From: a virus
Direction: 5' to 3' (one strand)
DNA: 64,000 nt
IMG/VR virus record: IMGVR_UViG_3300036846_000488
Location: 17,257 to 81,256 of that record
The notes under the pieces were generated by a model. The model searched no databases. It was given only the letters and a program-made list of their open reading frames with translations, and was not told where the DNA came from. Shown here piece after piece: positions 27,488 to 45,150 of this stretch; position 1 is the first letter of the stretch; each line of letters opens with the position of its first letter. The position numbers were made by a program, and so were the translations under genes.

Positions 27488-27494
27488 GAGAGGA

Positions 27495-29270: not shown

Positions 29271-29299
29271 TTGTGCGCATGTGGTGTATGGGCTATACT
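29271..29299 (+). promoter_or_regulatory. Sigma-A promoter P1
   Basis: TTGTGC-N17-TATACT. Confidence 0.8.
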
Positions 29300-29305
29300 G
29301 GAGTC

Positions 29306-29400
29306 ATCCAGTTAACTGGATCGGAGTCACCTGGTTAAGTCTCCTGCTGAGGAGCACCAGCACTCCCGAACAGGCCGGACCCTCTGGGGTCTGGCCCTTG
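29306..29400 (+). ncRNA. Candidate small RNA 1 (two hairpins + terminator)
   Basis: ATCCAG-TTAA-CTGGAT; GGAGT/ACTCC + CTGGT/ACCAG + CTCCT/AGGAG; GGCCGGACCC/GGGTCTGGCC. Confidence 0.6.
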
Positions 29401-29426
29401 TGCGTTTGTAGTGTTTTTGATATACT
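29398..29426 (+). promoter_or_regulatory. Sigma-A promoter P2
   Basis: TTGTGC-N17-TATACT, hexamers identical to P1. Confidence 0.82.
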
Positions 29427-29431
29427 GGACA

Positions 29432-29548
29432 CAGTGCTTCAGAGCCCCACGCCCTGAGCACGACCCGATCCTTCGGCCCCATGCGGGGGGATCGGGGGTA
29501 GGCCCGGTGTCGGTGAGTATTCGTACTCTTCGACACTGGGCCTTTTTT
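29432..29548 (+). ncRNA. Candidate small RNA 2 (twin CCCAY-loop hairpins + terminator)
   Basis: Hairpins 29434-29461 and 29464-29496, long terminator stem 29500-29543 with T6; G-U pairs favour the plus strand. Confidence 0.68.
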
Positions 29549-29578
29549 CATGTCCGGATACCCATGAAAGGACAACAG

Positions 29579-29803
29579 ATGACCCAACAGATCACCTGCG
29601 TGAAGTGTGGCTCAGACAGATTCCGTGCAGGAGAGATCGAGCTCAGTGAAGACGGCGGGTTCATCGTCGTCATGCCATGTACCGAGTGCGGTACCCCCAA
29701 CAAGCTCATCCAGAGCGACGACACGGAGTTCGCCCAGCTGCTGCTGGAGTTCTTCCAGATCGCAGGCCCGGGGAAGTTCGAGCACAAGCTGGGGCCGTCG
29801 TGA
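29579..29803 (+). CDS. Zinc-ribbon protein (74 aa)
   Basis: CVKCG...CTECG; GAAAGGA RBS. Confidence 0.72.
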   Translation: MTQQITCVKCGSDRFRAGEIELSEDGGFIVVMPCTECGTPNKLIQSDDTEFAQLLLEFFQIAGPGKFEHKLGPS

Positions 29804-30144
29804 GGACCTGGGTGTTGTGGACCCACTACGACTGTGAGGTCAGCGTCTGGCTCTTCGCCACTCAGGACGAGTGCTACCAGCAGCTGAAGAACAACTGGCT
29901 CGACGACTGCGACGAGGAATGCGGTCACAACCCGGATGAGGAGATGTCGAACTCGGAGATCTCCGAGGCGGTGGGGTGGCACTACGACGAGCTGAGCTGG
30001 GACATCTGTCCGACCGAGGTGCCGGAGGAGGAGTTCACGGTGCCAGCTCCGGTCGCAGAGGCTCCGCCAGCTCCGGTCAGCATCACCGCCGCCCAGGCCG
30101 GAGATCTGCTCAGTCGTCTGCAGAGCTTCCAGGAGCGGTCATGA
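29800..30144 (+). CDS. Acidic hypothetical protein
   Basis: GTGA-coupled start MRTWVLW. Confidence 0.68.
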   Translation: MRTWVLWTHYDCEVSVWLFATQDECYQQLKNNWLDDCDEECGHNPDEEMSNSEISEAVGWHYDELSWDICPTEVPEEEFTVPAPVAEAPPAPVSITAAQAGDLLSRLQSFQERS

Positions 30145-30461
30145 AGGAACCACCTTGGCTCACGGCCAAGGTCGATCAACGTCTGGCCGAGATCAGAGCC
30201 GGCGGGGCGTTAGAGCTCGCTCGTGATCAGCACCCGTTGATCATGACCTTCCTGGACGAGGGTGATCCCGAGATGTCCGAGGAAGAACGAGAGAAGTGGG
30301 AGCGGACCTGCGATAGCTGTGGTCGGTACTGCTCACCCGATGGAGACCTGGCCTTTTACACCGGTCATGCCCAACGAATTATCGATGGCCATCAGGTCAT
30401 CTTGGCCTATGGAGTCTGCAATGACTGCAGGCTCGCTGATTCGGAAAGAGGAACCGAGTAA
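30141..30461 (+). CDS. Hypothetical protein with two CxxC
   Basis: Start MKEPPW; CDSC...CNDC. Confidence 0.68.
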   Translation: MKEPPWLTAKVDQRLAEIRAGGALELARDQHPLIMTFLDEGDPEMSEEEREKWERTCDSCGRYCSPDGDLAFYTGHAQRIIDGHQVILAYGVCNDCRLADSERGTE

Positions 30462-30922
30462 TGAGAGGGAACACGATGAAGTACGACATCCACGAGATGA
30501 CCCCCGATGAGATCGCAGCATCCTGCGAGGACGCTGCCGACCTGCTCGAAGGTCACTGGACCTCGGGCAGCTGGTTCAGGTACGACGAGGACGACGAGGG
30601 CAGGGAGACTGGCATCTCCTACTGCATCGAGGGCGGTCTGGCCGCTGCGCTCGGTCTGGACAAGATCGAAGACGGTGATGACATCGCCCGCTTGACGCTG
30701 CTCAGCTGCCCGGTCTACGACGCGGTGCTGGAGACCCTGAACCACCAGGTCTTCGCTCAGCAGGTCGATGCCGGTCTCCGTCAACCGGATGCGGAGTACA
30801 CCCCGTCCTTCGGCGAGGGTGACCTGCCGAACTGGAACGACTCCGGTGGGCGCACTGAGCAGGAGGTGGTCGATCTGCTCCGGAAGACCGCGAAGCGGGT
30901 CCTCACGGAGGAGACGGCATGA
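30461..30922 (+). CDS. DUF6197-like protein, paralogue 1
   Basis: W..G...YC..GGL...WND..GRT..EV..L...A. Confidence 0.7.
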   Translation: MRGNTMKYDIHEMTPDEIAASCEDAADLLEGHWTSGSWFRYDEDDEGRETGISYCIEGGLAAALGLDKIEDGDDIARLTLLSCPVYDAVLETLNHQVFAQQVDAGLRQPDAEYTPSFGEGDLPNWNDSGGRTEQEVVDLLRKTAKRVLTEETA

Positions 30923-31269
30923 GTGAGGAGACAGCAGATGTCCTGGCCGCCGGTCGGGAGTACATCGAGCAGAACGGCTGGTGGCGTGGGCACCTGATCG
31001 GTCCCAACGGACAGCAGGCCTGCGCAGTCGGTGGGCTGATGAGAGGTCTGCATCTGGCGGCTACGAGCGTGGAGAAGGACCCCAGGGTGCTGAACGCTTG
31101 CTTCGCGTTGGCCAACGTGCTCGGTGCAGAGCGGGCCTACCCGCTCCAGACCAACATCGGCTACGTGGAGTACTGGAACGACCACTACGCCAAGGACAAG
31201 CAGGCGGTCCTGGACGCCTTCGCGAAGGCCGAGAAGATCGAGCGTGCTGGGTTCGATCCCGATGCCTGA
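30919..31269 (+). CDS. DUF6197-like protein, paralogue 2
   Basis: GW..G...C..GGL...WND....K..VL.AF.KA. Confidence 0.7.
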   Translation: MSEETADVLAAGREYIEQNGWWRGHLIGPNGQQACAVGGLMRGLHLAATSVEKDPRVLNACFALANVLGAERAYPLQTNIGYVEYWNDHYAKDKQAVLDAFAKAEKIERAGFDPDA

Positions 31270-31474
31270 GCCGGAGCGGTTCATCACCGCGGACGAGGCC
31301 TTGTTCGAGACCGAGCGAGCTGTCGCTGGTCTCGGTGGTGAGGGCGGGATGCTCGGAAAAATGGAGCAGCCCGAGGCCCTGAAGCTAGCCGAGGCGCTGT
31401 TCGGCGAGGACATGCCCGATGACATCCGGCAGTTCTTCACTCAACCACCATCATCAGAGAGGGATGTCGACTGA
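31262..31474 (+). CDS. Hypothetical protein (70 aa)
   Basis: Start MPEPERF, coupled. Confidence 0.6.
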   Translation: MPEPERFITADEALFETERAVAGLGGEGGMLGKMEQPEALKLAEALFGEDMPDDIRQFFTQPPSSERDVD

Positions 31475-31788
31475 TGGAGTCCTACTTCGGAGAGCCCTGG
31501 CCCTCTGGCGTCTGCGACAACGGCATCCAGGTCCCGACTCCGGTGGGGGTGAACTGCATCCTCTGCCAGACCCCGGTCCAGGAGGGAGACCAGGGAAGCT
31601 TCATGCACGGCTCCGACGAGGAAGGTGTAATCCCTGCCCACAAGGAGTGCTCACTGCGCTCGGTGCTGGGTGGGATGGGGCACCACGAGGACCACCAGCT
31701 CTGGTGCATGGAGCGCGGTGACCCAGACGGTGGTCGCACCTACCGACAGTCGGCTCTGGAGGTCTGGAAGGTGGTGATCCAGAAGTGA
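31474..31788 (+). CDS. Cys/His-rich hypothetical protein
   Basis: CILC...H.EC.LR.V.G...H. Confidence 0.7.
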   Translation: MESYFGEPWPSGVCDNGIQVPTPVGVNCILCQTPVQEGDQGSFMHGSDEEGVIPAHKECSLRSVLGGMGHHEDHQLWCMERGDPDGGRTYRQSALEVWKVVIQK

Positions 31789-31970
31789 CCTGGACCCAGC
31801 CGGTCTGCCTGAACAAGTGGAGGGAGCTGTACGGCAACCAGATGCCGCACATGCTGAAGCTCCCGAAGTCCGAGTGGGACCCCTGCTGCTACTGCCGGGA
31901 GCCCACCAACATCTACGTGCGGCTCGATCCCGCGACCGTGCCGTACCCGAGGAAGGAGCAGGAGGAGTGA
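31785..31970 (+). CDS. Small Cys-containing protein
   Basis: C..KW...CCYC. Confidence 0.62.
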   Translation: MTWTQPVCLNKWRELYGNQMPHMLKLPKSEWDPCCYCREPTNIYVRLDPATVPYPRKEQEE

Positions 31971-32206
31971 GGGCGATCAAGCACATCGACCAGATGTACG
32001 CCTTCGTCCAGACCGACCCCAAGGATCAGACCGAGGGAGTGATCGGCTTCCACACCGGCCAGGGCTGGATGCCGATGGTCGGTGCCGACATGGACCGGGT
32101 GGAGTACCTGAGGCCGATGGCTCAGAAAATCGCTGACGCCACCGATACCGAGATCCGACTGATCAGGTTCACCCTCCGTGAGGAGATCGAGGTGATCAAG
32201 CCATGA
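31967..32206 (+). CDS. Hypothetical protein (79 aa)
   Basis: GTG start MRAIKHID with GGAG RBS. Confidence 0.68.
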   Translation: MRAIKHIDQMYAFVQTDPKDQTEGVIGFHTGQGWMPMVGADMDRVEYLRPMAQKIADATDTEIRLIRFTLREEIEVIKP

Positions 32207-32427
32207 ATGATGTGTCCAAGACCCACATCATCGAGCTCGATCAGATGTCTCTGATGATGCTCCGGCATCTGCGGGAGCACGGCGCTGAGGAGCCAGCGGT
32301 ACCCGAGGACGGACGCTACGAGCACGAGGAGATGTCCGCTCTGCACTACGAGTGGTCGCGTACTCACCAGGCGATCCGACTGCTCCTCGGAGTACAGCTG
32401 GTCAATCAGGCTCTCGAACAGCTATGA
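32203..32427 (+). CDS. Hypothetical protein
   Basis: 74 aa, ATGA coupled. Confidence 0.6.
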   Translation: MNDVSKTHIIELDQMSLMMLRHLREHGAEEPAVPEDGRYEHEEMSALHYEWSRTHQAIRLLLGVQLVNQALEQL

Positions 32428-32573
32428 GATGCCGCCACACCATGGAATCCCTGGCGATTCCAACGCATACCCACACCTGCTCTGGCAACCACGACGCCGG
32501 CTACCACTGGTGTCCTGGGTGTCAGCAGTGGTGGTGGAAGAAGGAAGAAACCAACCCGAAAGGAACCAAGTGA
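32424..32573 (+). CDS. Small Cys/His protein (49 aa)
   Basis: MRC...H.C...H...H.C..C; coupled at both ends. Confidence 0.55.
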   Translation: MRCRHTMESLAIPTHTHTCSGNHDAGYHWCPGCQQWWWKKEETNPKGTK

Positions 32574-32986
32574 GCACACTCACCGCACTCAAGCCGTTGA
32601 AGAGCTTGGGCGAGAAGATCCGCATCCTGCCAAGCCCGGACGTGCCGCCGATCGACACGCCGACCCATTCCGACACCGCCAGCGTGAAGGTGCTGGTCAA
32701 GGCCCGCCAGATCGTAGCCAGGGGCTGGATCCAGGGCGCGGCCCAGAACGACCGCGGCACCAAGTTCTGCGCTCAGCAGGCCATCAACGAGGCCACTCAC
32801 GAGCTGAGGTACGCGGAGAAATTCGGGTACCGCTGCCAGTCGATGATGATGCGTACGATCAGCGTCGAGACCGGCACGTCCTGGGGCACCATCCCGAACT
32901 GGAACGACGCACCGGGTCGGACCCAGCAGCAGGTTCTGACCATGTTCGACAAGACCATCGAGACCGCTCGGAAGGTAGGCGCATGA
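32570..32986 (+). CDS. DUF6197-like protein, paralogue 3
   Basis: GTG start with GAAAGGA RBS; GW.QG...FC...A...WND..GRT..QVL..FDK.I. Confidence 0.72.
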   Translation: MSTLTALKPLKSLGEKIRILPSPDVPPIDTPTHSDTASVKVLVKARQIVARGWIQGAAQNDRGTKFCAQQAINEATHELRYAEKFGYRCQSMMMRTISVETGTSWGTIPNWNDAPGRTQQQVLTMFDKTIETARKVGA

Positions 32987-33417
32987 GCACTCCCAACATC
33001 CCGCTGTTGCGGAAGGCCGTGGAGTGGGTCGAGTGGCAGGACACGATGCCCGAGATCGACCGGGAGTGGGACCAGGCCGAGTTCCGGAACGCGACCAACG
33101 AGCACGCCTACCGACTGGCCTACTTCGCGCTGCTGGCCGCTGGGGTTCGTAGCACGAACCGTCGAGCGCAGACCATTGGGCTCAGCCAGTACCTGGAGCC
33201 GTACTGCGGCACCTCGTTCTGCGTGGCCGGCTACATCGGACAGCTGCTCAACCGCGAGTACGCCACCCAGGACAAGGTGAACGGGGTGTTCGTCGCGGAG
33301 TACGCGACCAAGCAGCTCGGGCTGACTCTGGACCAGGCCGAGGAACTGTTCGACGGCTGCAACACCGCCGCCGACATCCGCCGGATCTGCGAGCGGATCG
33401 CGGGAGAGAAGCTGTAG
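32983..33417 (+). CDS. Conserved actinophage-type hypothetical protein
   Basis: W.Q...CGT..C.AG...A...LGL...QA..LF. Confidence 0.72.
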   Translation: MSTPNIPLLRKAVEWVEWQDTMPEIDREWDQAEFRNATNEHAYRLAYFALLAAGVRSTNRRAQTIGLSQYLEPYCGTSFCVAGYIGQLLNREYATQDKVNGVFVAEYATKQLGLTLDQAEELFDGCNTAADIRRICERIAGEKL

Positions 33418-33420
33418 CTC

Positions 33421-33849
33421 GTGATCGAGTACTACGACCGCGATGGCCGACCTCTCGATCGGGAGTCAGCGTGGGCTCTGCTGGTGGACTATGACTACAA
33501 ACGGGTCGATCTCACCGAGGTCGGCCCGTACGTAGTCTCCACGGTCTGGTTGGGGTTGGACCATCGCTACATGGGCGAGGGTCCACCCCTGATCTTCGAG
33601 ACCATGGTCTTCACCAACTCGGCCTGGAATGCCGATCGGGCGGACGAGAACCGGGAACTGCTCCTGGAACTGGACTGCCAGCGGTACAGCACCCTCCAGC
33701 AGGCCCAGGAGGGCCATCGGGCGATGGTTCTGCTGGTAGAGGCCACATTGGACGAGGAGGTGCCGACCGAGGCCTCAGAGGGCGTTTTAGGCCCTCAGGA
33801 GCTGAAAAGTAGTGTTTTGAGTTGTATGTGGTGCCTAAATACCCTATAA
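33421..33849 (+). CDS. Conserved phage hypothetical protein
   Basis: VSTVWLGLDH...P..FETMVF...RY.T...A..GH. Confidence 0.75.
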   Translation: MIEYYDRDGRPLDRESAWALLVDYDYKRVDLTEVGPYVVSTVWLGLDHRYMGEGPPLIFETMVFTNSAWNADRADENRELLLELDCQRYSTLQQAQEGHRAMVLLVEATLDEEVPTEASEGVLGPQELKSSVLSCMWCLNTL

Positions 33850-33850
33850 T
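33822..33850 (+). promoter_or_regulatory. Sigma-A promoter P3
   Basis: TTGTAT-N17-TATAAT in an AT-rich patch. Confidence 0.82.
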
Positions 33851-33855
33851 TAAGG

Positions 33856-33940
33856 GGTCAGGGCGACTGCATACCCTGATATCGGTCCTCCCAGACCGAC
33901 ACGGAGAACCCCCGTCAGATACCTCTGGCGGGGGTTTTCG
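33856..33940 (+). ncRNA. Candidate small RNA 3 / attenuated leader
   Basis: TCAGGG/CCCTGA; TCGGTC-CTCCCA-GACCGA; terminator AACCCCCGTCAGA/TCTGGCGGGGGTT-TT. Confidence 0.6.
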
Positions 33941-33980
33941 TGTGTTTGAACCTCAACCAGAACGCCCGAAAGGGGTAGCT

Positions 33981-34481
33981 ATGAAGACCAACATCACGGA
34001 GATCTACCGGATCGAGACCATGAACTCGACCTACGAGATCAAAGTCGTGGAGAAGGACGGAAAGATCGCCTCGCTCTGCAAGAAGATGGGCCTGGACCAG
34101 GAGAAGCACCAGGTCAAGGCGAACGGCACCGAGTACCTAGACCGGCTCTTCATCGGAGCCTCGTTCAAGGTGCCCGGCGTGGTCACCACCTCTGTGGTGA
34201 CCGACTACAGCCACTTCGTCCTCTCCACGAAGCCGAAGGCCAGGGTCACCGGTCCCGATGAGCACCTGCTCACCCCGGTGGTCGAGGCCATCAAGGAGCA
34301 GCTCAACCCGACCGCTGTGATGCTCGACGACCGAGCGGCGGTCGAGATCTGCGGGATCGACGGCTGTCAGGTCGAGCGTGTCCCCGGTCTCCCTCGGCAC
34401 GAGGGGTTTCCGGGGTGCAAGTCCGGCAGCATCGCCTCCGGTGGGGCTCGTTCCCACTGCTCCTGCGACTACTGCTACTGA
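33981..34481 (+). CDS. Hypothetical protein with a C-terminal Cys/His domain
   Basis: Start MKTNITE; C...C...H...C.SG...HCSCDYCY. Confidence 0.75.
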   Translation: MKTNITEIYRIETMNSTYEIKVVEKDGKIASLCKKMGLDQEKHQVKANGTEYLDRLFIGASFKVPGVVTTSVVTDYSHFVLSTKPKARVTGPDEHLLTPVVEAIKEQLNPTAVMLDDRAAVEICGIDGCQVERVPGLPRHEGFPGCKSGSIASGGARSHCSCDYCY

Positions 34482-34588
34482 GGCATCAGCGTGATCACCA
34501 CCACGGGGGTGGTGATCTGCGCCGGTTCCTCAGAACCGGCCTCCAGTCCAGATGGCTGGAGGCAGCATCCAGAAGGGAAGTGAAAGAG

Positions 34589-34738
34589 ATGGTTCTCGCC
34601 ATCGTTTCTTGGATCACCGGTCTCACCGAGGTCGCCATCGCGGCGCTCCTCGGTCTCAAGGAGATCGCCATCGCCGCACTAGGTCTTGCCGTCGTCATGC
34701 AGCAGCTGGCGGCGCTGTGGGACGGTGAACTGGCGTAA
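34589..34738 (+). CDS. Hydrophobic peptide (49 aa) with an internal repeat
   Basis: MVLAIVSWITGLTEVAIAALLGLKEIAIAALGLAVVMQQLAALWDGELA; purine-rich RBS region. Confidence 0.6.
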   Translation: MVLAIVSWITGLTEVAIAALLGLKEIAIAALGLAVVMQQLAALWDGELA

Positions 34739-34761
34739 CGAACGCTTGACCAGCACCACCC

Positions 34762-34798
34762 GGCCCCACAGCAACCGTGCTGTGGGGCTTTCGTGTTT
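34762..34798 (+). terminator. Intrinsic terminator
   Basis: GGCCCCACAGCA/TGCTGTGGGGCT-TT. Confidence 0.75.
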
Positions 34799-34819
34799 CA
34801 CCACAGAAAAGGAACCATC

Positions 34820-35317
34820 ATGTCCCACCTCAACACCCTCGACCAGCTCGACTTCACCCCGGAGCCGGTCGTCGTCAAGCCCACACACCGCAAGGCGCTG
34901 ATCGCAGTGGTCATCGCCTCGGTGCTGGTGCTGCTCGGCTGCGCCGGCTACGCCGTCCACGAGCACCAGAGCCTGGGTACCTCCCGGGCGCACGCTGCCT
35001 CGCTCAGCCACCAGCTGAAGGGCACCCAGGCCGACCTCAAGGACTCCAAGTCCGCGGTCAGCAGCCTCCGCACCGAGAACGGCACGCTCAAGGCCACCGC
35101 CGAGAAGTGCTCGGTGTACGTGCCGATCGGCAACCACATGGTGAACGCCCTGCGCTACGAGCTGAAGGCCGTCCAGGGCGGCACCTTCGGGGCCATCATC
35201 TGGCTGCCCAAGGCCAGCACCGAAATGCACGCGGTCAGCCGTCTGCTCGACTCTCACCAGTCCTACGACGGTGAGCTGAACGACGTGTGTGGCCCGTCCA
35301 GCACCACCAACTCCTGA
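34820..35317 (+). CDS. Membrane-anchored coiled-coil protein
   Basis: TM ALIAVVIASVLVLLGCAGYAV followed by heptads. Confidence 0.75.
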   Translation: MSHLNTLDQLDFTPEPVVVKPTHRKALIAVVIASVLVLLGCAGYAVHEHQSLGTSRAHAASLSHQLKGTQADLKDSKSAVSSLRTENGTLKATAEKCSVYVPIGNHMVNALRYELKAVQGGTFGAIIWLPKASTEMHAVSRLLDSHQSYDGELNDVCGPSSTTNS

Positions 35318-35343
35318 ACCATCCAGACCCTGAAGGGGGAGCA

Positions 35344-35463
35344 ATGAGCAAGAAGCACAAGAAGATCAAGCGCAAGGCCAAGAAGGCGGCGCGCTGGACC
35401 TGGAAGAACGGTGGCAAGGAGGCGACCATCATCGCCATCCGGAAGACACTGGTGCGCGCATGA
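35344..35463 (+). CDS. Highly basic peptide (39 aa)
   Basis: Manual: MSKKHKKIKRKAKKAARWTWKNGGKEATIIAIRKTLVRA; GGGGAG RBS, ATGA overlap. Confidence 0.65.
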   Translation: MSKKHKKIKRKAKKAARWTWKNGGKEATIIAIRKTLVRA

Positions 35464-35885
35464 ACAACGTCACCACCCTGTTCCCGGATCTCGTCTTCGA
35501 GATCCTCCGCTACGACGCGGACCAGCGGGTCCCGCACGACACCTACCGGTTCTTCTACCTGGAGCCGCACGCGGTGGACACCACCCGGTCCAACTACAAG
35601 CCCTTCGCGAAGGGGAAGCACCCGTTCGTCGAGGGCTACGAGCCCGGTCCGAACTACTGCGAGTCCGAGCGGCACCAGGTCTCTGAGGCGTACGCGCGGC
35701 TGATGCGCTACGGCCTGGAGAAGGACGGCTACGTGCCGATGTCGTACGAGTCGGTGCCGACAGAGCTGGCCCACTTCGCGGCACACAGCCAGGCCCCGAT
35801 CGAGTTCCACAAGGGTCTGGACTCCTACAACCCCAAGGTCACTCGACGGGTCGTGGTCTGGGTCCGTGGGGAGCTGCCGGCATGA
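35460..35885 (+). CDS. Hypothetical protein
   Basis: 141 aa, coupled, phage codon usage. Confidence 0.7.
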   Translation: MNNVTTLFPDLVFEILRYDADQRVPHDTYRFFYLEPHAVDTTRSNYKPFAKGKHPFVEGYEPGPNYCESERHQVSEAYARLMRYGLEKDGYVPMSYESVPTELAHFAAHSQAPIEFHKGLDSYNPKVTRRVVVWVRGELPA

Positions 35886-36109
35886 AGAAGTGGCTGCTTC
35901 TGGGCATCGGGTTCTACGCAGTGATGATCCCGCTGGCCGGCTTGCTCTGGCCCCGGACACTGGTCCAGCTGGTTCGGGGTGAGGAGTTCGACCAGGATGC
36001 TCTCGACTTCTGGGAGTCCATCGAGCCTCGTCCGGACCTGGACGAGCCCACCAGGCGGGCTCGCTTCCTGAAGCGCGTCCGGTCACTGAGGAAAGAGGAG
36101 TCGGCATGA
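35882..36109 (+). CDS. Membrane protein
   Basis: N-terminal TM. Confidence 0.65.
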   Translation: MKKWLLLGIGFYAVMIPLAGLLWPRTLVQLVRGEEFDQDALDFWESIEPRPDLDEPTRRARFLKRVRSLRKEESA

Positions 36110-36369: not shown

Positions 36370-36374
36370 ACCAG

Positions 36375-38101: not shown

Positions 38102-38138
38102 GCAGACGCTCAGTTGCACCGCCAAGAAAGGTTCGACT

Positions 38139-38387
38139 ATGCCAACCACCCGCGACAAGCGAGTACAGGACACCGCCAGCCTCCACGAGAGCGCCGTTCA
38201 GGCGATCGCGAAGGGCGAGGTGGGACCTATCCCCAAGAAGGTCCGGAAGAAGGCTGAGAGACGCAACCAGGCCGTCCACACACACGTTGTGGTCGACCCG
38301 CAGGTGATGCAGGCGGCCAAGGAGCTGCTGCTCGGCTCCTACACCCGGATCGAGATCATCGACGCTGACACAGTGATCGTGCGATGA
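38139..38387 (+). CDS. Basic hypothetical protein
   Basis: Start MPTTRD with AGAAAGG RBS. Confidence 0.65.
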   Translation: MPTTRDKRVQDTASLHESAVQAIAKGEVGPIPKKVRKKAERRNQAVHTHVVVDPQVMQAAKELLLGSYTRIEIIDADTVIVR

Positions 38388-39631
38388 GTCAGACACCAGA
38401 CGACGAGGAGGAGAAGGACATAGGTGCCGTGACTCGCAAGGCTTGGTTCGCCGGCCATCTCGATGCCGCTGACTCCGAAGGCGGCTTTGGTTCTGGGTTC
38501 CGCGGCGTACCTGGTGTACGTCATGGCGGATCCAAGACCGTCACTCGCGACCAGATCAGCGGGTCCATGGATCTGTGCTGGTGTGGTCAGCCGTTCGATC
38601 ACGACTGGGCCGGCAAGTCCGACGGTCGTTCACATCCCCGTGTCGAAGACCCATACAAGGGAGCTGAAGTGTCCCCAACAACGCAACCCGCACCGACCGA
38701 AGAGCAGCCCCGCATCGAGAGACGCGCCTTGCGCGCCTACAACGCGGATCTGGCCGACATGGTTCTGACAGCGGTCAACGAGTACCACGTCAAGTACCGG
38801 ATCACCGCACACAGCGTGATCCTGTTCCCGCCTGACGGAACCCAGCCGTACGCCGTCAACGCCCGCAACGGTGACCGTCAGGTCAAGGCAGCGCGGGCTT
38901 GGTTCGTCCGGCACTGCATCCCCGAGGACCTGTCTATCAAGCAGGCCGCGAAGCCAGCCCCCTCTACCAAGCCCGTCGACACCGACGCGATCAGGGAGCT
39001 GGCCGAGACGATCGACTCCGAGGAGCACCTGCCCAAGCTGGAGGAGCCAGCGAAGGCGGAGAAGCCAGAGAAACCGGTGAAGCCAGCAATGGCAGCGGAG
39101 AAGGCAGCACCGGCTCCCGCGCAACCGGAGCCGGCGACCCCTCAGCCGGATTCAAAGGGATGGGTGCCGTACCTGCTGGACCAGGGCAAGCCGCACCAGA
39201 AGACGCACCCGTTCTACCTGTTCAACACCAAGACCGGTCAGGTCAAGTGCACCATCGACGGTGAGATCCTGGCCGGGACGCGGAGCACCGGTGGGCACAC
39301 CCGGACCCATCACACCGACACCACCACGCTGTGGGGCGCGAAGGCCAAGGAGAAGGGCATCCAGACCTACTTCACCAACAAGGCCCGTGGCCAGGTGGAG
39401 GAGGCGATCGGTCTGCTCCACACTGCGATGGGTATCCAGCCCAAAGGTGATGACGCCGAGCTGATCGCGGAGCGCGACAAGCTCGCCTCGGAGAAGACCG
39501 TTCTCCAGACCGAGAGCAAGCAACTGAAGGATGCGAACAAGCAGCTCACCGACGAGCTCGCTGCGCTGAAGACCAAGTTCGCAGACATGGAGGCCAAGGT
39601 CGCTCTAGCCAGAGAGGCGTTCGGTCTCTAG
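38384..39631 (+). CDS. Multidomain hypothetical protein (zinc-finger-like motif, C-terminal coiled coil); start uncertain, internal GTG at 38670
   Basis: CWCG...H...HP, P/A/K linker, C..D...H...HH, long heptad tail. Confidence 0.72.
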   Translation: MSQTPDDEEEKDIGAVTRKAWFAGHLDAADSEGGFGSGFRGVPGVRHGGSKTVTRDQISGSMDLCWCGQPFDHDWAGKSDGRSHPRVEDPYKGAEVSPTTQPAPTEEQPRIERRALRAYNADLADMVLTAVNEYHVKYRITAHSVILFPPDGTQPYAVNARNGDRQVKAARAWFVRHCIPEDLSIKQAAKPAPSTKPVDTDAIRELAETIDSEEHLPKLEEPAKAEKPEKPVKPAMAAEKAAPAPAQPEPATPQPDSKGWVPYLLDQGKPHQKTHPFYLFNTKTGQVKCTIDGEILAGTRSTGGHTRTHHTDTTTLWGAKAKEKGIQTYFTNKARGQVEEAIGLLHTAMGIQPKGDDAELIAERDKLASEKTVLQTESKQLKDANKQLTDELAALKTKFADMEAKVALAREAFGL

Positions 39632-39639
39632 ACCATCAA

Positions 39640-39673
39640 GGGAGGCCCCACATCATCAGGTGTGGGGCCTTTC
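39640..39673 (+). terminator. Intrinsic terminator
   Basis: AGGCCCCACATC/GGTGTGGGGCCT-TT. Confidence 0.75.
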
Positions 39674-39698
39674 GCATATCCACATGAAGGGAAGACGC

Positions 39699-39965
39699 AT
39701 GAACGAGTTCGAGGAGAATGAAGGAAACGAGGAGGAGTACGGGCTCATCACCGAGTTCAACGACTCCGACTTCCCGGAAGGAACACCGGACCACTACCAC
39801 GGTTGCGACTTCTGCGCCGGAGCCACCTGGGGTGAGTTCGTCCTGCACACCGACGACTGCCCGGGAGTCCAGACCCACATTGAGATCGACGCCATGGTGA
39901 AGGGCATCGACCCCTCCGAGGTCATGACTGACAAGGACCCAGATTGGAAGGACACCGATGTCTGA
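39699..39965 (+). CDS. Acidic Cys/His protein
   Basis: CDFC...H..DC. Confidence 0.68.
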   Translation: MNEFEENEGNEEEYGLITEFNDSDFPEGTPDHYHGCDFCAGATWGEFVLHTDDCPGVQTHIEIDAMVKGIDPSEVMTDKDPDWKDTDV

Positions 39966-40242
39966 GAACCCGCACACCCAGCCCTGGAAGATCGACTGTC
40001 CGTTCTGCTACGCCAAGGCCGGCTACAAGTGCCGGTCCGGCGTCGGTAAGACCGGGTGGGGCATCGCGAACCGCGATGTGAGCTACTACCACAGGGGTCG
40101 AATCACTGCTCAGTGGTCTGCGCAGCTGGCCTGGGACGCCGGCTATGCCGCCGGCTACCTGGAGGGCACCAACGACCTCGGTGCGCTGGTCGTGAAGACC
40201 GTCACCGAGGTCACCACACCTCCGCTGCAGGAAGTGAGCTGA
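39958..40242 (+). CDS. Zinc-finger protein
   Basis: CP.C.A..G..C...H..R. Confidence 0.7.
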   Translation: MSENPHTQPWKIDCPFCYAKAGYKCRSGVGKTGWGIANRDVSYYHRGRITAQWSAQLAWDAGYAAGYLEGTNDLGALVVKTVTEVTTPPLQEVS

Positions 40243-40538
40243 TGGGGATCACGATCATCGAGCAGCAGACCATGCACGCCATCCAGCAGATTCCGCAGCA
40301 GCTGAAGCGAATCGCAGACGCGCTGGAGAAGCAGAAGCCACAGGTCGATCCCAACTCGCTGGGCGCGTACGCGATCTGGAAGGACGAGGTAGCCCGGAGT
40401 GGCTGTCTGGTCGGGTTCGCCGACTGGCAGGCCTGGCACGACCAGCCCACCCCAGAGCAGGTGGGGGAGGCGATCCAGGCGGTCAAGCGTGGCTTCGACG
40501 AGATCGAAGAGCAGGTGAGAGGGGATGCTGCAGAGTAA
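40242..40538 (+). CDS. Hypothetical protein
   Basis: Start MGITII; LKRIADALE. Confidence 0.66.
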   Translation: MGITIIEQQTMHAIQQIPQQLKRIADALEKQKPQVDPNSLGAYAIWKDEVARSGCLVGFADWQAWHDQPTPEQVGEAIQAVKRGFDEIEEQVRGDAAE

Positions 40539-40776
40539 CGGTGCTCCCCACCTGACCTTCATCGACGAGTCGTCCCAGCTCAGCTTCGTCTGGGATGGCA
40601 AGTCCCCGGTGATCGAGGTCACCGGCGGTGCAGAGCCCGACACCATCCCGATCCACGGTCGGGTCGGCATCAACAACGCGACGATCCAGCGCTGGATGGA
40701 CTGGTTCGAGCTGGTCTGTCGCAACTACATCCGGATCAAGATCGGAGAGAACGGAGATAAGAATGACCTGGAGTGA
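40525..40776 (+). CDS. Hypothetical protein
   Basis: 83 aa, GAGGGG RBS. Confidence 0.62.
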   Translation: MLQSNGAPHLTFIDESSQLSFVWDGKSPVIEVTGGAEPDTIPIHGRVGINNATIQRWMDWFELVCRNYIRIKIGENGDKNDLE

Positions 40777-41122
40777 CTTCCTGAAGTACAGCAAGTACGT
40801 CGCCGTGTTCTACGCGGCGGCGTTTCTCGTCGGGATCGTCGGGATCTGGGCGCAGCCCCACTCACAGTGGATCTGGACCGCAGTGATGTTCTTCGGTGCG
40901 GCCATGGCCGGGAACGTGGCGCTGGCTTGCTACCACTACAACCACAAGGGCTCGATGCTGCTGGCCAAGAACGACTATCTGGCCGCGCAGGACGAAGCCC
41001 AGGTGATCACCGGGACGACCAGCAAGAGCATGGAGCTCCGGCAGGCCGGTCTGCGCGCGGACATGGAGGAGTTCATGACCGACAAGATCAAGGAAGAGAT
41101 GCGGAATCGGGGCTACCGGTGA
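40763..41122 (+). CDS. Two-TM membrane protein
   Basis: Start MTWSDF; two hydrophobic helices. Confidence 0.68.
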   Translation: MTWSDFLKYSKYVAVFYAAAFLVGIVGIWAQPHSQWIWTAVMFFGAAMAGNVALACYHYNHKGSMLLAKNDYLAAQDEAQVITGTTSKSMELRQAGLRADMEEFMTDKIKEEMRNRGYR

Positions 41123-41442
41123 AGCGGCTCCTGTACCTGTCCATCGGGTTGACCGTGATCTCCTGGATCGCGTTCATGGTCAGCTTCTGGCTGCCCCATC
41201 CCGTAGGCGCAGCCCTGCAGGCCACCGCGCTCAGCCTGGGGATCCCGGGCGTGGCCGCGGTGTGTTTCCTCGGTGTCTGCTGGGACGAGATCGAGACCTA
41301 CCTGCACCGGTCCAAGACCCGCACCCTGCGCTGCACCGACTGTGGGTCGAAGATCCTCAACCCCGCCGGCACCACCATCGGTGACCAACTGGAGGGCGAA
41401 CTGATGTTGGAGAACCCGCGCGACAAGGGGAGATGGCCATGA
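41119..41442 (+). CDS. Two-TM membrane protein with CxxC
   Basis: GTG start MKRLLYL; CTDC. Confidence 0.66.
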   Translation: MKRLLYLSIGLTVISWIAFMVSFWLPHPVGAALQATALSLGIPGVAAVCFLGVCWDEIETYLHRSKTRTLRCTDCGSKILNPAGTTIGDQLEGELMLENPRDKGRWP

Positions 41443-42170
41443 TCGGTGATCCCGATGTCGTCCCGCTCACCCTGCGTCGGAAGGAGTACATCCTGAAGAT
41501 GCTGGCCTGGGAACGGAATAACGGTGAGAACTGGATCCGGATCTCAGAGCAGGAGCTCACCGACTTCGGCGGTCGGGCCTTCTTCAGTGGCTGCGAGGTG
41601 CTCTACATCAACGAGAACATCTTCACCACCTCGCACAGGCGGGGCTGGGACCGAGAGGGCGAGAAGGTCCGGCTCCAGTACCGGATCCTGGTTCCCGGCG
41701 GCGAGCCCTGGACCCCAGCCGGCTCTCAGTACTACCTGTCCACCAACACCACCACCGCAACCAACACCACCATCACGCTCAACACCACCTATGAAGGGAA
41801 GACACCCGTGGAGCACCACATCGACCGCGAGAAGCTGATCGAGGTCGTCACCGATAACAAGGAGGCCTACGAGCTCATCCGAGACGAGGCCCACATCCTC
41901 TACCGCACCCAGATGGAGCGCCTGACCGAGCGTCACCTGGCCGGCGAGATCTCCACCGCCTCCCTGGTCGTCAAGGACAAGGACGGCAACCGGATCGACC
42001 TGGCCGCCGACCAGAGCGAGCTGCACGACCGCAAGCTCCGGGCCCTGGAGCTGGACTCCCGAGAGGTGGTCATCCTCGACCACGGCGAGTACCTGGTCTG
42101 GGTCGAGGACGCCGACACCAACCTCCAGGCCAGCGCCACCATCCTGAAGCGGCTGGAGGAGCTGTCATGA
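41433..42170 (+). CDS. Two-domain hypothetical protein; internal RBS+GTG at 41808
   Basis: Thr-rich linker; C-half is paralogous to 42690-43046. Confidence 0.68.
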   Translation: MAMIGDPDVVPLTLRRKEYILKMLAWERNNGENWIRISEQELTDFGGRAFFSGCEVLYINENIFTTSHRRGWDREGEKVRLQYRILVPGGEPWTPAGSQYYLSTNTTTATNTTITLNTTYEGKTPVEHHIDREKLIEVVTDNKEAYELIRDEAHILYRTQMERLTERHLAGEISTASLVVKDKDGNRIDLAADQSELHDRKLRALELDSREVVILDHGEYLVWVEDADTNLQASATILKRLEELS

Positions 42171-42697
42171 CCAAGCTCGCGCACATCACCAGCCGACCGC
42201 AGTACGAGCTCGGTGACCGAGTTCTCGGGCTCTGCGGCAAGGAGTTCAAGGTCAAGGTCCTCTGGAAGGACCTGCCCATCGACAAGCCGATCTGCCGGTT
42301 CTGCGTGGACGCTGCCATGAAGGCGCTCACCGAGGCCGACGTGGTGATCGGGGAGATGCGTCGGTCGGCGCGTCGGCTCTCGGTCCTCTCCATGGTCCTC
42401 TCGGAGATCGCGGATAAGGAGATCGACCTCGACACGATCGCGAAGCAGGACGCCTACTTCAAGAAGGAGCAGGAGGAGCTGCTGGTCCTGAAGGCTGCTG
42501 AGGATCGTCTGAAGACCATGTGCACCTGCACCTGGACCTCTCCGGAGATGTTCACCGAGGACCCGGACTGCCCGATCCACGGCGGGGAGGACCAGCCGAT
42601 CCGGGAAATCGAGGATGTTCCGCTGCCCACGGCGTCTGACTTCTCCGGAGTCCAGGGCGTGCAGGAATCCGACATCCAGGAGCCCACCGATGGATGA
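42167..42697 (+). CDS. Hypothetical protein with Cys motifs
   Basis: H...LCG...P.C..C; CTC...CP.HG. Confidence 0.7.
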   Translation: MTKLAHITSRPQYELGDRVLGLCGKEFKVKVLWKDLPIDKPICRFCVDAAMKALTEADVVIGEMRRSARRLSVLSMVLSEIADKEIDLDTIAKQDAYFKKEQEELLVLKAAEDRLKTMCTCTWTSPEMFTEDPDCPIHGGEDQPIREIEDVPLPTASDFSGVQGVQESDIQEPTDG

Positions 42698-43046
42698 CAT
42701 CGAGGTCGACAAGGAGAAGCTGATCAAGACCCTGAAGAAGAACCGGAAGGCGCATCGGGCGATCTTCCTGAAGGGTCAGGAGGTCTACCGCCAGCAGATG
42801 ATCAAGGAGATCGAGCAAGCGCTGGCAGATGCTCGCAACGGCGGCAAGATCACCCGGGGCTTCTCACTCCCGGTGCCCGAGGACCACACCGAGGACTTCG
42901 ACACCGTGATCGGGATGCTCCAGTGGCACCAGGGCGAGAAGATCATGCTCAGCTACCGCGAGTACCAGACCTACATCGAGAACAAGTGGGGCTGGCAGCA
43001 GTCCTTCGGGGCCACCACCATGGCCTACGCCGGGATGGCCCCGTGA
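42690..43046 (+). CDS. Conserved phage hypothetical protein
   Basis: V.KEKL...L..N...H...Y...P.DH..D.D..I.ML...W.W. Confidence 0.72.
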   Translation: MDDIEVDKEKLIKTLKKNRKAHRAIFLKGQEVYRQQMIKEIEQALADARNGGKITRGFSLPVPEDHTEDFDTVIGMLQWHQGEKIMLSYREYQTYIENKWGWQQSFGATTMAYAGMAP

Positions 43047-43249
43047 GCATCCCGATCCCCAAGATCGACACGGTGATGCACTTCACCGACGAGATCGGGG
43101 TGGTCGAGATCTCCACCTGCCGAGACGAGCTCACCCTCGTCATCGGCGCGCCGTACACCAACGTTCTGACCACCCACCACGAGGGTCAGACGATCATCAG
43201 GATCGGAAAGGATCCGACACACATGAACAGACTGAGGGACCGACGATGA
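43043..43249 (+). CDS. Hypothetical protein
   Basis: GTGA coupled, MSIPIPK. Confidence 0.58.
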   Translation: MSIPIPKIDTVMHFTDEIGVVEISTCRDELTLVIGAPYTNVLTTHHEGQTIIRIGKDPTHMNRLRDRR

Positions 43250-43473
43250 CTGAGGGAATGCAGGCCGTCGAGCCCGACGCCTGTCCGGAGTGCGCCTATG
43301 TGGCGTACCTCGGCTACGAGGTACAGGGCGTCTACGACGGCGTTCTGTACTGGGTGTGCCCAGCCTGTGGGCACGCCTGGCCGCGCTGGGTCGGTGACTC
43401 CAGCCAGCGGATGGCTCAGCTCTCCCAGCAGTACGCCGACGAACACAACGAGAAGCAGAAGGAGAGGACATGA
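43246..43473 (+). CDS. Zinc-ribbon protein
   Basis: CPEC...YDGV..W.CP.CG..W.R. Confidence 0.72.
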   Translation: MTEGMQAVEPDACPECAYVAYLGYEVQGVYDGVLYWVCPACGHAWPRWVGDSSQRMAQLSQQYADEHNEKQKERT

Positions 43474-43727
43474 GCGATCAAGGCGATGTGATCTTCAGAG
43501 CTCCCATGGACAACAACACCTGGTTGGTCCTGGTGACCGGGATCACCGAGTCCCAGGGAGAGCTGACCATCACCAAGATCGGCGATGGCGAGGTGATTCT
43601 CACCGAGCGGGTCGGGCTGATGTACGGCGCGATCTTCGGGCCTGACATCGACGATGTTCGGACGTGGGAGCGCATGGCAGTCGAAGCCGTTGACAGCTAC
43701 AACGCGAAGAAGGAGGAGGTCACATGA
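43470..43727 (+). CDS. Hypothetical protein
   Basis: V.L.YGA.FGPD..DV..W. Confidence 0.7.
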   Translation: MSDQGDVIFRAPMDNNTWLVLVTGITESQGELTITKIGDGEVILTERVGLMYGAIFGPDIDDVRTWERMAVEAVDSYNAKKEEVT

Positions 43728-44092
43728 CCAGCGCATTCGACGACCAGTCCAGCCCGATGATGACCAGCGCGAACAACGTGGGCGACGGCTGGCACCCCAT
43801 CCTCCGCGAGCTGGAGGAGAAGCTCAACGCGATCGACCCGGACTTCGAGCTCCAGCAGGTCAAGGAGAAGTTCGGCGCGCTGCGGTACTACGCGCGGACC
43901 ACGAAGGACGCAGACCAGTATCGGAAGTTCCACCTTGCGATCTCGGTGGCCGAAACGCAGTCCTCGAAGACCTGTGAGGTATGCGGGGAGCCGGGCCGCA
44001 CCTGTAGACCCGGGCTGCACTGGATCAAGACCCTCTGTGATGAGCACTTCGCGGAGGCCAAGAAGGAACACGAGAAGGAGTTCAACAGATGA
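43724..44092 (+). CDS. Conserved phage protein (QVKEKFG.LR.Y family)
   Basis: GW..I...QVKEKFG.LRYY...CE.CG.PG...W..TLC..H. Confidence 0.8.
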   Translation: MTSAFDDQSSPMMTSANNVGDGWHPILRELEEKLNAIDPDFELQQVKEKFGALRYYARTTKDADQYRKFHLAISVAETQSSKTCEVCGEPGRTCRPGLHWIKTLCDEHFAEAKKEHEKEFNR

Positions 44093-44217
44093 TGCACTGG
44101 ATCACCAGCATCCTGGCCGGCGGAGGTGCCGGCGTGATCACCGCCGCGTTCATGGAGGCGTACTACCAGCGCCGCGCGCAGGAAGAAGTCGGCCAGTACG
44201 ACCAGGAGACGCCATGA
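44089..44217 (+). CDS. Small membrane peptide (42 aa)
   Basis: Manual: MMHWITSILAGGGAGVITAAFMEAYYQRR...; ATGA overlaps at both ends. Confidence 0.58.
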   Translation: MMHWITSILAGGGAGVITAAFMEAYYQRRAQEEVGQYDQETP

Positions 44218-44906
44218 GTGAAGCCAACCCGTTCATGGTGATGATCCTGGAGCACAACAACTTCGTCTCCGAGGCCCAGGAGGTGGAAGCGCAGATCACA
44301 CCGCTCGACGATCAACTCAATTTCGGTGTCGGGGATGTGGCCATCCTGGCTTCGTCCAACGCTCCGCTGGAGGCGGACTTCACCGTGGTCAAGGGTCTCG
44401 ACCCGGCCAACTACGCGGAGACCTTCCCCGACTGGGAGGAGCGGATGACGTTCAACGCGCACGTCCTCTGCGAGATCTTCTCCCGTGCCGACACCGAGCT
44501 GAGCATCGGCTGGGTACACCGACTGAAGCTGCTGCCGATCAAGCAGTACCGGTACAAGGAGCTGAAGACCTGGCGGAAGAAGGGGTTCCCCGAAGACCCG
44601 CCGGAGTGGGTGATGAAGATCTTCCGGAACTACACCGACCAGCTCGCCGAGCGCGCGCCGGACAAGGTGCCGGTGGCTGTCACCTGCTCGGCCTGCGGCA
44701 AGCGCAATGTCGAACTGGTCGTCGTCCGGAGGCTGGAGTACCGGGGTCGGGCCGGCCTGATGAGACAAGGCGAGGACGAGCGTCATGTCACGCTCCATGA
44801 TCCGGAGACGACCTCAACGCACCAGGCCAAACTGGTCTGCTCGGACTGCCTGGTGGAGACCCGACTCGGCGACGACTCGTGGGTGCTGCCGAACGTCAGT
44901 AACTGA
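44214..44906 (+). CDS. Hypothetical protein with a C-terminal zinc ribbon
   Basis: Start MSEANPF; CSAC...CSDC. Confidence 0.72.
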   Translation: MSEANPFMVMILEHNNFVSEAQEVEAQITPLDDQLNFGVGDVAILASSNAPLEADFTVVKGLDPANYAETFPDWEERMTFNAHVLCEIFSRADTELSIGWVHRLKLLPIKQYRYKELKTWRKKGFPEDPPEWVMKIFRNYTDQLAERAPDKVPVAVTCSACGKRNVELVVVRRLEYRGRAGLMRQGEDERHVTLHDPETTSTHQAKLVCSDCLVETRLGDDSWVLPNVSN

Positions 44907-44915
44907 TTCCAAGTC

Positions 44916-44944
44916 TTCCTGTTGTGTCGTGTTTGTGATACAAT
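44916..44944 (+). promoter_or_regulatory. Sigma-A promoter P4 (extended -10)
   Basis: TTCCTG-N17-TACAAT with TGn extension. Confidence 0.72.
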
Positions 44945-44949
44945 AGGAG

Positions 44950-45068
44950 CGTGCCTTAGTAAGACCTGGGCACATGCAGGATCCACACCTCGACGAGGTG
45001 GGAGCGACGCTCTGCGAGATCCTGTTGAAGTACGGCCCTCACCGCTCAGATAGCGGTGGGGGCTTTTC
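44950..45068 (+). ncRNA. Candidate small RNA 4 / leader with GAC-triloop hairpins + terminator
   Basis: GTGCCT/GGGCAC; CAGGATC/GATCCTG enclosing two GAC hairpins; GGCCCTCACCGCT/AGCGGTGGGGGCT-TTT. Confidence 0.62.
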
Positions 45069-45108
45069 TCATGTCCGCACCTCGACGAGGTGGGAGCGAC
45101 GCTCTGCG
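44986..45108. repeat. Perfect 31-bp direct repeat (44986-45016, 45078-45108) bracketing a terminator
   Basis: CACCTCGACGAGGTGGGAGCGACGCTCTGCG twice. Confidence 0.95.
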
Positions 45109-45150
45109 CGACGTGTGAGATCTACAACAACCCTGAAGGGAAGTACGACA

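Follow-up and report, generated by a model that had tools for sequence, protein, structure and literature searches.

Why would a phage genome carry promoters that lead at once into a hairpin-rich RNA and a terminator, and not into a gene? The question is raised by a window of 64,000 nucleotides (nt), bases 17257-81256 of the IMG/VR record IMGVR_UViG_3300036846_000488, an 81,256-bp viral contig that CheckV rates as complete. The genome has a GC content of ~63%, and its source is taken to be an uncultured actinophage from soil. A first-pass annotation of the window, made from the sequence alone, had described four plus-strand promoters of the sigma-A type (P1-P4), each followed by a folded RNA and a terminator. 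This description holds, the promoters being predicted: the folds of units 1-4 stand out against shuffled sequences (z-scores of -3.5, -7.1, -6.9 and -5.0, respectively), promoter and terminator have no gene between them, and no open reading frame (ORF) is conserved across the units. The same annotation had argued that the folds belong to plus-strand RNA, and indeed folding of the plus strand is favoured over that of the minus strand by 4-10 kcal/mol in each of the four units. We consider it reasonably probable that the four units are cis-acting leader cassettes of an early gene block dependent on host RNA polymerase, and that the genes behind them are read by terminator read-through. The general layout is already known from lambda PR′-6S-tR′, from the Pleft RNA of mycobacteriophages and from terminators in phage 5′ untranslated regions (5′UTRs). 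What appears to be new here is a family of units with a shared 8-mer, 5′ hairpin and CATGTCC box, a head of two tandem units, one of them a single-copy RNA that covaries, a promoter placed ahead of the terminator at each block border, and a slot for variable cargo.

The evidence begins with the conservation of the region among relatives. The DnaE-type polymerase is ~35% identical to its nearest cultured relatives, those of Gordonia and Brevibacterium phages, and searches in near and distant modes among 50,697 phage records gave no DNA match. A locus search anchored on the three proteins just 3′ of the cassettes returned no relatives. With the ATPase and the helicase as anchors, related viral contigs were reached at 69-86% protein identity, and pattern scans of the P2 region in IMG/VR and JGI soil metagenomes supplied further ones. 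From this set we dropped L019, L020 and L022 (AT-rich chance matches), L029 and L030 (near-identical to L025) and L021 (the contig of L012); L017 and L013 are one contig. In the resulting 12 distinct phages the head of the block has one and the same order: P1, unit 1, terminator T1, P2, unit 2, terminator T2, CATGTCC, ribosome-binding site, first gene. The first gene after the cassettes varies among the 12 phages; therefore, conservation is higher in the non-coding control region than in the genes behind it. The first-pass annotation had staked its proposal on structural conservation or covariation in related phages, and both were found: the cassettes are kept, and T1 and the core of unit 1 covary. 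No RNA sequencing run containing 28900-35400 is listed; a single DNA run matched, which is probably that of the source sample.

The second line of evidence is the way in which terminators are distributed over the genome. A gene call based on codon usage separates a long minus-strand block, which ends at 29215 and wraps round the record, from a plus-strand block at 29579-50639 (21.6 kb) with ~55 small genes. Under strict criteria, which superseded a loose terminator scan that was too noisy, the 21.6-kb block has seven intergenic terminators in sense orientation versus none inside the 60-kb minus block, whose end is marked by another one at 50653. T2, T3, T4, T5 and T7 all fall under the strict definition of an intrinsic terminator, T1 having just a G/U-rich tail; T3 was called by a generic terminator scan as well. 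T-runs of 4-6 follow GC-rich stems in all 12 T2 copies, in T4 and T7 and in the homologues of units 3 and 4, and the relatives share the tendency for sense-strand intergenic terminators in the plus block. Each border between blocks runs from the stop codon through promoter, leader, terminator and box to the ribosome-binding site. The border promoter thus lies 5′ of a terminator that also ends the preceding operon; therefore, that terminator would gate all polymerase entering the next block. We found no promoter between any terminator and its downstream gene. The 10 kb at 34820-44906 hold no consensus -10 and can be accessed only by way of T3 and T5, the distal half also through T6. As a result of this layout, every gene of the plus block sits behind at least one terminator. 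The earlier proposal that all early genes depend on read-through is thus in line with the layout. As to the manner of lambda nut/N or HK022 put that it had named, no homologue of N, Q or put was found in a Pfam scan of ~60 proteins or by comparing the unit 1 model with HK022, the latter being a low-power test.

Are P1-P4 credible as promoters? The hexamer TAYAMT occurs four times on both strands of the whole 81-kb genome, and these four occurrences are exactly P1-P4. Even the looser TANNNT is about six-fold below the expectation from base composition, on both strands and genome-wide. By the sequence criteria for sigma-A/sigma-70 promoters, P1-P3 fit TTGNNN-17-TAYAMT, and P2 and P4 possess a TGN-extended -10. 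P2 has TATACT at the 17-nt spacing, shares both hexamers with P1 and is near-invariant across the 12 phages; P1 is kept in 10 of the 11 relatives, P3 in L015 and L013, and the -10 region of P4 is invariant in L002-L005 and L007. P1-P4 are thus predicted promoters that rest on the -10, the spacing and conservation. A further shared part is the 8-mer TGTNGTGT, with the form TGT(A/C/G)GTG(T/C), located 6 nt 5′ of the -10 in P1, P2 and P4. The composite motif TGTNGTGT-N4-SN-TAYAMT has three exact matches, at these same promoters, against 0.03 expected. The 8-mer copies at the helicase-gene promoter run opposite to the sense of transcription; therefore, the element fits the operator of a regulator better than a polymerase contact, and it is probably the operator of one phage DNA-binding regulator. 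No consensus -10 occurs anywhere in the 60-kb block of replication and virion genes, where an activator or a modified polymerase is therefore probably needed; no phage RNA polymerase or sigma factor had a Pfam or PHROG match among the proteins scanned. Two side observations concern this regulatory setting. A ribbon-helix-helix protein is encoded at 16084-16260, and a possible divergent promoter for the minus block lies at 29225-29270 on the minus strand, back to back with P1, with a -10 TACCGT that is kept as TACCGTGAGA in two relatives and a -35-like CTGTGC 16 nt upstream.

Unit 1 is the part of the region for which RNA structure is best supported by comparison. Its core, the 3′ half of the unit, is a three-tier hairpin, in which an outer helix GGAGU/ACUCC is followed by a 3-nt internal loop, then by a middle helix CCGG/CCGG, an AUAAG-type loop and a variable apical hairpin. 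Compensatory changes occur at 10 of the 13 pairs, and 95% of the alignment cells are paired, compared with 27-61% when the partners are slid. The covariation score of 0.47 exceeds the 0.06-0.14 obtained in controls and was reached by none of 500 shuffles. A covariance model of the core gives one match per phage and none elsewhere in 385 kb. The 5′ half of the unit is far more variable in length and content: it is nearly lacking in the window, relatives have up to ~150 nt of additional hairpins there, and lengths go from 109 to ~250 nt. An Rfam search, which the first-pass annotation had suggested, gave no match at the gathering score with Rfam 15 over the whole window; at E up to 10, the region 29200-29600 produced chance-level matches only, with the 6C and CRISPR repeat families included, and six relatives produced none. 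On these grounds, unit 1 is a separate, predicted single-copy structured RNA at the block head that matches no described family. We also considered a leaderless peptide encoded in unit 1. The near-start ATG of most relatives opens ORFs of 3-130 amino acids (aa); this candidate was rejected because these ORFs share no sequence and the window has no start codon there.

T1 also covaries clearly. Compensatory changes are present at 8 of its 15 pairs, 95.6% of the cells are paired versus 29-52% with slid partners, the covariation score is 0.49 against 0.05-0.14 in controls, and the pairing includes G-U, at one pair in 5 of the 12 phages. Unit 1 leads only into P2. The tandem arrangement of units 1 and 2, with identical TTGTGC/TATACT hexamers and a T1 tail that doubles as the -35 of P2, had already been pointed out for the window, and it is the same throughout: the tail CTTGTGC is the P2 -35 in the window and in 11 of 11 relatives.

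Judged by their common parts, units 2-4 are one family, defined by a 5′ hairpin (HP1), a terminator, the box and the spacer 8-mer, the last of these located in P2 and P4. The 5′ hairpin begins within ~0-7 nt of the predicted 5′ end in each of them. Homologues of unit 3 in two relatives and of unit 4 in five have the same promoter, 5′ hairpin, terminator and box, and HP1 of unit 3 shows a compensatory G-C to C-G change in L013. Length variation spoiled the MAFFT alignments of the whole unit 2 and of T2, which were poor, and for this reason T2 was judged from single folds: in each of the 12 phages a hairpin of -27 to -41 kcal/mol is followed by a T-run, the lower stem being kept in sequence and the upper stem varying with pairing retained. 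While the stems covary, the box after T2 is an invariant CATG(T/C)(T/C)C across the 12 phages; conceivable roles are those of a site for RNA processing, a site for a factor or a downstream-DNA context for termination. The box also recurs behind a minus-strand hairpin. Between that hairpin-plus-box (27996-27959) and a collagen-like gene (28338-28961) lie ~340 nt without a convincing ORF (27997-28337, minus strand), which may be a further minus-strand non-coding transcript.

The middle part of the leaders behaves differently from their ends. In unit 2, five phages have a second hairpin (HP2) with the apex CCCCAUGCGGGG, three have unrelated hairpins, and in 4 of the 12 the middle is absent, which leaves a unit of 65-90 nt made of the 5′ hairpin and the terminator only. 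In L017 (3024-3089, minus strand), the unit 2 leader contains a 66-nt tRNA-like element that scores 48.1 bits on the Rfam tRNA model (gathering score 29). It has acceptor, D and T arms and a 3-nt loop instead of an anticodon loop, ARAGORN does not call it, and a role as a decoy or as a handle for processing by RNase P is conceivable. In unit 4, an insert of ~55 nt with two GAC-triloop hairpins is specific to the window. It duplicates the GAC-triloop hairpins of the downstream 5′UTR, as part of a 38-nt direct repeat (44982-45019 and 45074-45111, 95% identity) that brackets T4 and in which each copy corresponds to two such hairpins; relatives lack the insert and have only the downstream copy or an analogue. 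Several more specific functions for these parts were tried and rejected. A CRISPR-repeat mimic, considered for HP2, matches no CRISPR-DR family, and its stem is not kept in the window. A mini-ORF starting in the CATGTCC box is not kept in relatives. A riboswitch or attenuator with alternative pairing finds no conserved segment complementary to the variable terminator arms, and the terminators look constitutive. As an observation apart, ARAGORN calls a tRNA-Ser(GCU) of 95 nt on the plus strand at 13757-13851, within a minus-strand ORF (13602-14567); it is probably a false call, the Rfam tRNA model having no match at the gathering score anywhere in the window.

Table 1. Elements of the control region and of the block behind it (positions in the window)
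Feature	Position	Strand	Description
P1	29271-29299	+	Predicted promoter: TTGTGC, 17-nt spacer with 8-mer TGTGGTGT, TATACT; predicted start ~29306
P2	29398-29426	+	Predicted promoter: TTGTGC, 8-mer TGTAGTGT, extended -10 TGATATACT; predicted start ~29433
P3	33822-33850	+	Predicted promoter: TTGTAT-17-TATAAT; -10 overlaps the stop codon of the upstream gene
P4	44916-44944	+	Predicted promoter: weak -35 TTCCTG, 8-mer TGTCGTGT, extended -10 TGATACAAT (44936-44944); predicted start ~44951
8-mer copies at promoters	29280-29287, 29407-29414, 44925-44932	+	In the spacers of P1, P2 and P4
Unit 1 RNA (~100 nt)	29306-29404	+	Small 5′ hairpin, three-tier core hairpin 29321-29370, T1
T1 hairpin	29373-29396	+	GGCCGGACCC / GGGTCTGGCC; G/U-rich tail CTTGTGCGTTTGT doubles as P2 -35
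Unit 2 leader	29434-29548	+	HP1 29434-29461, HP2 29464-29498 (apex CCCCAUGCGGGG), T2 29501-29542 and U6 tract
CATGTCC box	29549-29555	+	Directly 3′ of the T2 U-tract, 24 nt before ATG 29579
First early gene	29579-29803	+	74 aa, Zn-ribbon-like; access only through T2
Unit 3 leader	33857-33946	+	HP1 33857-33880, second hairpin, T3 33904-33939, tail UUUUCGUGUGUUU; next ATG 33981
Unit 4 leader	44951-45076	+	HP1 44951-44973, insert ~44976-45025, T4 45034-45064, box CATGTCC 45070-45076; gene GTG 45151
T5	34762-34789	+	Terminator without promoter, 30 nt before the gene at 34820
T6	39643-39670	+	Without promoter; hairpin of -28.6 kcal/mol, UUUCG tail, box variant CATATCC 39675-39681, before the gene at 39699
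T7	46168-46191	+	Without promoter; hairpin of -26.6 kcal/mol, UUUUC tail, box variant CATGTCA 46197-46203, before the next gene
Weaker hairpin	~37339	+	Without promoter, within the plus block
Helicase-gene promoter region	27442-27490		Minus-strand TTGCAC-17-TATGGT; three 8-mer copies in plus orientation (27442-27485)
Minus-strand hairpin	27959-27996	-	-31 kcal/mol, tail CUUCUC, CATGTCC box 27959-27965, directly before the ribosome-binding site and ATG 27948 of a small gene

As for the genes on either side, the minus-strand block encodes the helicase (26135-27430), a primase-like Toprim protein, the polymerase and the head and tail proteins. Family matches in the plus-strand block are limited to three DUF6197 copies, one ATPase and one zinc-finger protein. 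The DUF6197 paralogues all lie in the first early operon (30476-30922, 30919-31269 and 32570-32986).

How might such cassettes work? According to the reading that we favour, each unit would start with a sigma-A-type promoter whose spacer holds the 8-mer, a probable operator for one phage regulator. A hairpin a few nt from the RNA 5′ end would probably act as a 5′ stabiliser, and an optional variable middle part would lead to a constitutive intrinsic terminator, the CATGTCC box and the ribosome-binding site. Most transcripts would be expected to end at the terminator as stable short RNAs with a hairpin at both ends, ~100-120 nt long in the window phage and 65-200 nt in relatives, and the genes would be transcribed solely by the read-through fraction. 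T5, T6 and T7 would gate blocks that have no promoter of their own, and unit 1 would differ from the others by acting as an RNA at the very head of the block. We infer promoter activity, termination, RNA abundance and the use of read-through as the expression route from the presence and arrangement of these parts. It is the combination of hairpins at both ends with a strong promoter that leads us to read the units as premature-termination cassettes with the short RNA as the main product. As to how the terminators are passed, passive leak and active antitermination seem to us about equally plausible. On one hand, terminators in series without intervening promoters favour an active read-through device. 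On the other hand, the modest efficiency expected of actinobacterial terminators would also allow a passive leak.

Several points weigh against our reading. A generic sigma-70 scan called none of P1-P4 because their -35 hexamers match TTGACA at only three of six positions, and such weak -35 matches are in themselves a reason for caution. The U-tract behind T1 is poor, and the terminator may be a weak one. The strength of the promoters, the efficiency of termination and the stability of the RNAs are, moreover, predictions. Finally, a purely cis role explains neither the sequence invariance of CATGTCC nor the conserved HP2 apex, and it likewise leaves unaccounted for the tRNA-like element in a relative's unit 2 and the structural conservation of unit 1.

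The strongest competitor is that the units are chiefly genes for trans-acting small RNAs, with read-through being incidental. Such RNAs might serve as decoys or sponges, as binders of Shine-Dalgarno sequences via C-rich loops, like 6C or B11, or as carriers of variable RNA cargo of the kind represented by the tRNA-like element. Stable small RNAs are typically made from a strong promoter and bounded by hairpins at the 5′ and 3′ ends; the core of unit 1, moreover, is kept with covariation and comes without a gene. However, a conserved trans-acting seed is hard to reconcile with unit 2, whose middle is missing in four phages and unrelated in three others; the reduction of this unit to its 5′ hairpin and terminator therefore favours a cis role, even if the HP2 apex is kept in five phages, a relative carries the tRNA-like element in the same slot and unit 4 holds a copy of downstream 5′UTR hairpins. 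The absence of any Rfam match at E up to 10, 6C family included, also speaks against this possibility. A precedent exists in the Pleft RNA of phage L5, which is abundant and toxic to the host (PMC5712189), but the first gene always follows T2 by ~25-40 nt with no promoter in between, so that the units are certainly leaders as well, because there is no other route to the genes. All in all, we regard a chiefly trans-acting function as possible but distinctly short of probable. The short RNAs may have a trans role in addition, which would be most plausible for unit 1, HP2 and the tRNA-like cargo.

A bolder proposal would combine both aspects. The early block might be a terminator-gated regulon opened by a new actinophage antitermination device, which could be either a put-like unit 1 or a factor reading the 5′ hairpin together with CATGTCC, and the cassettes might at the same time serve to express variable decoy RNAs, of which the tRNA-like element without an anticodon loop would be one. 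As a whole, we find this proposal rather unlikely.

Its two versions of the device can also be considered in their own right. In the first, unit 1 would be a cis-acting processive antiterminator RNA similar to HK022 put, making the polymerase from P1 resistant to terminators through the 21-kb block while polymerases from P2-P4 stop. The position of unit 1 suits this role, since it is a single-copy element at the block head, upstream of all terminators, with conserved structure and internal loops; moreover, a tandem of P1 and P2 with different leaders would make sense, and terminators in series without intervening promoters call for a read-through device. Yet P3 and P4 would be left without a productive role, the 5′ half of the unit is highly variable in length and content, its model has no match in HK022 (a comparison of low power), and contact between unit 1 and the polymerase would have to be assumed. 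We therefore think this version unlikely.

In the second version, which we hold to be similarly unlikely, a protein of the phage or of the host would open the gates, either an N-like factor acting on the RNA of the 5′ hairpin and box or a Q-like factor acting at the promoter via the 8-mer, and the short RNAs would be by-products like lambda 6S. In all phages the spacers of P1, P2 and P4 have the 8-mer at a set position, the terminators are flanked by a common 5′ hairpin and an invariant box, and the layout equals that of PR′-6S-tR′. Against this, the three copies of the 8-mer at the helicase promoter are oriented the other way and resemble a plain operator, and a conserved -10-like, sigma-dependent pause element is missing from the start of the transcripts, the first 15 transcribed nt of 16 promoters showing no conserved TANNNT. 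In addition, no Pfam antiterminator family, Q included, matched among the ~60 proteins scanned, with some small ORFs outside the scan. All genes of the block lie behind a terminator, which leaves the minus strand, the virion or the host as sources of the factor.

Less probable still is the idea that the hairpins are mainly elements of RNA processing or stability, like the RNase III sites between T7 early genes, with cleavage at or near CAUGUCC. The invariant box stands immediately 3′ of hairpins, including promoter-less ones and the one on the minus strand, and hairpins are present in most intergenic gaps of the block, but the T-runs of 4-6 after GC-rich stems are the signature of intrinsic terminators; the two roles would be compatible. 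Finally, it is very improbable that the conserved elements act at the DNA level only, as operators, an origin or recombination linkers between gene modules, with incidental folds: the cassettes do sit at mosaic borders with differing downstream genes, T2 has a lower stem of conserved sequence and the region is a divergent control region adjoining the replication genes, but compensatory changes retain pairing in T1, the unit 1 core and the upper T2 stem, and both the G-U pairs and the fold energies favour plus-strand RNA.

The interpretation as premature-termination leader cassettes, if correct, has several implications. To our knowledge, accounts of transcription control in actinobacteriophages are confined to a small number of cultured phages. 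The uncultured soil phages compared here have in common, as a group, a compact control unit that is repeated and the parts of which could be resolved by sequence comparison alone. The unit 1 core is a defined new structured RNA for RNA-family catalogues, and the cassettes provide natural promoter, 5′-hairpin and terminator parts for high-GC Gram-positive hosts. They also represent a test case for whether terminators close to phage promoters throttle transcription passively, serve to produce functional small RNAs or are acted on by antitermination, a question left open by the transcriptome studies of L5/D29 and of Pseudomonas phages. For an uncultured phage, however, their immediate use is limited.

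How do the cassettes compare with known systems? The lambda late control region, which consists of the promoter PR′, the 194-nt 6S RNA, the terminator tR′ and the antiterminator Q, has a similar build: a constitutive host-type promoter produces a short, terminated non-coding RNA directly before a gene block, and a conserved DNA element lies inside the promoter. The system described here differs in having four units and three promoter-less terminators, in serving an early and not a late block and in its actinobacterial host. Lambda N/nut relies on boxA and a boxB hairpin in the leader and on an arginine-rich N protein encoded before the first terminator; in the present phage, no plus-strand gene lies upstream of the first terminators. 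A side observation in this context is a 39-aa protein (35344-35463) just behind T5, with 38% Lys/Arg and no family match, which is conceivably an RNA-binding peptide. HK022 put is a nascent RNA that confers processive antitermination, acting in cis on the polymerase with no need for protein factors and dependent on the beta′ zinc-binding domain. Like put, unit 1 is predicted to be a stacked stem-loop RNA just behind an early promoter and upstream of terminators; unlike put, it has its own terminator at once. In a test of low power, a search of the HK022 genome with the covariance model of the unit 1 core (E up to 1) gave no match. Among actinophages, repeated conserved promoters are reportedly also a feature of the early region of Streptomyces phage phiC31, worked out in the 1990s in the laboratory of M. 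C. M. Smith, together with terminators that lack classical U-tails; its early promoters are said not to be sigma-A-like, and a promoter-before-terminator order is not known to be reported for it.

The closest actinophage counterpart is found in the Cluster A mycobacteriophages L5, D29 and StarStuff, whose early Pleft leader gives rise to a very abundant, stable and toxic non-coding RNA (PMC5712189). There, the transcript drops by >90% before the first early gene, and the non-coding RNA exceeds the downstream mRNA more than ten-fold (PMC5712189). In both cases an early sigma-A promoter of an actinophage fires, or is predicted to fire, into a non-coding leader. The earlier statement that no named actinophage system has such a layout must thus be qualified, as the Pleft non-coding RNAs come close (PMC5712189). 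The Pleft leader is ~500 nt long and has no evident stem-loop terminator, in contrast to the canonical terminators of the ~100-nt leaders here. Furthermore, stoperators belong to the Pleft systems and are absent from the present phage, and the two share no sequence similarity in near or distant searches of the phage records. The closest functional parallel comes from six Pseudomonas phages studied by ONT-cappable-seq, in which terminators in the 5′UTR right behind a promoter yield transcripts that share their 5′ end, either a short RNA of <250 nt, which predominates, or a long mRNA; this premature-termination behaviour was measured for 34 of 42 5′UTR terminators (PMC10914365). The present units share with them the terminator immediately 3′ of the promoter and the retention of these elements among related phages. 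The Pseudomonas cases were established by transcript mapping, whereas our units are predicted from sequence, belong to one family defined by the 8-mer, the 5′ hairpin and the box, and include two in tandem.

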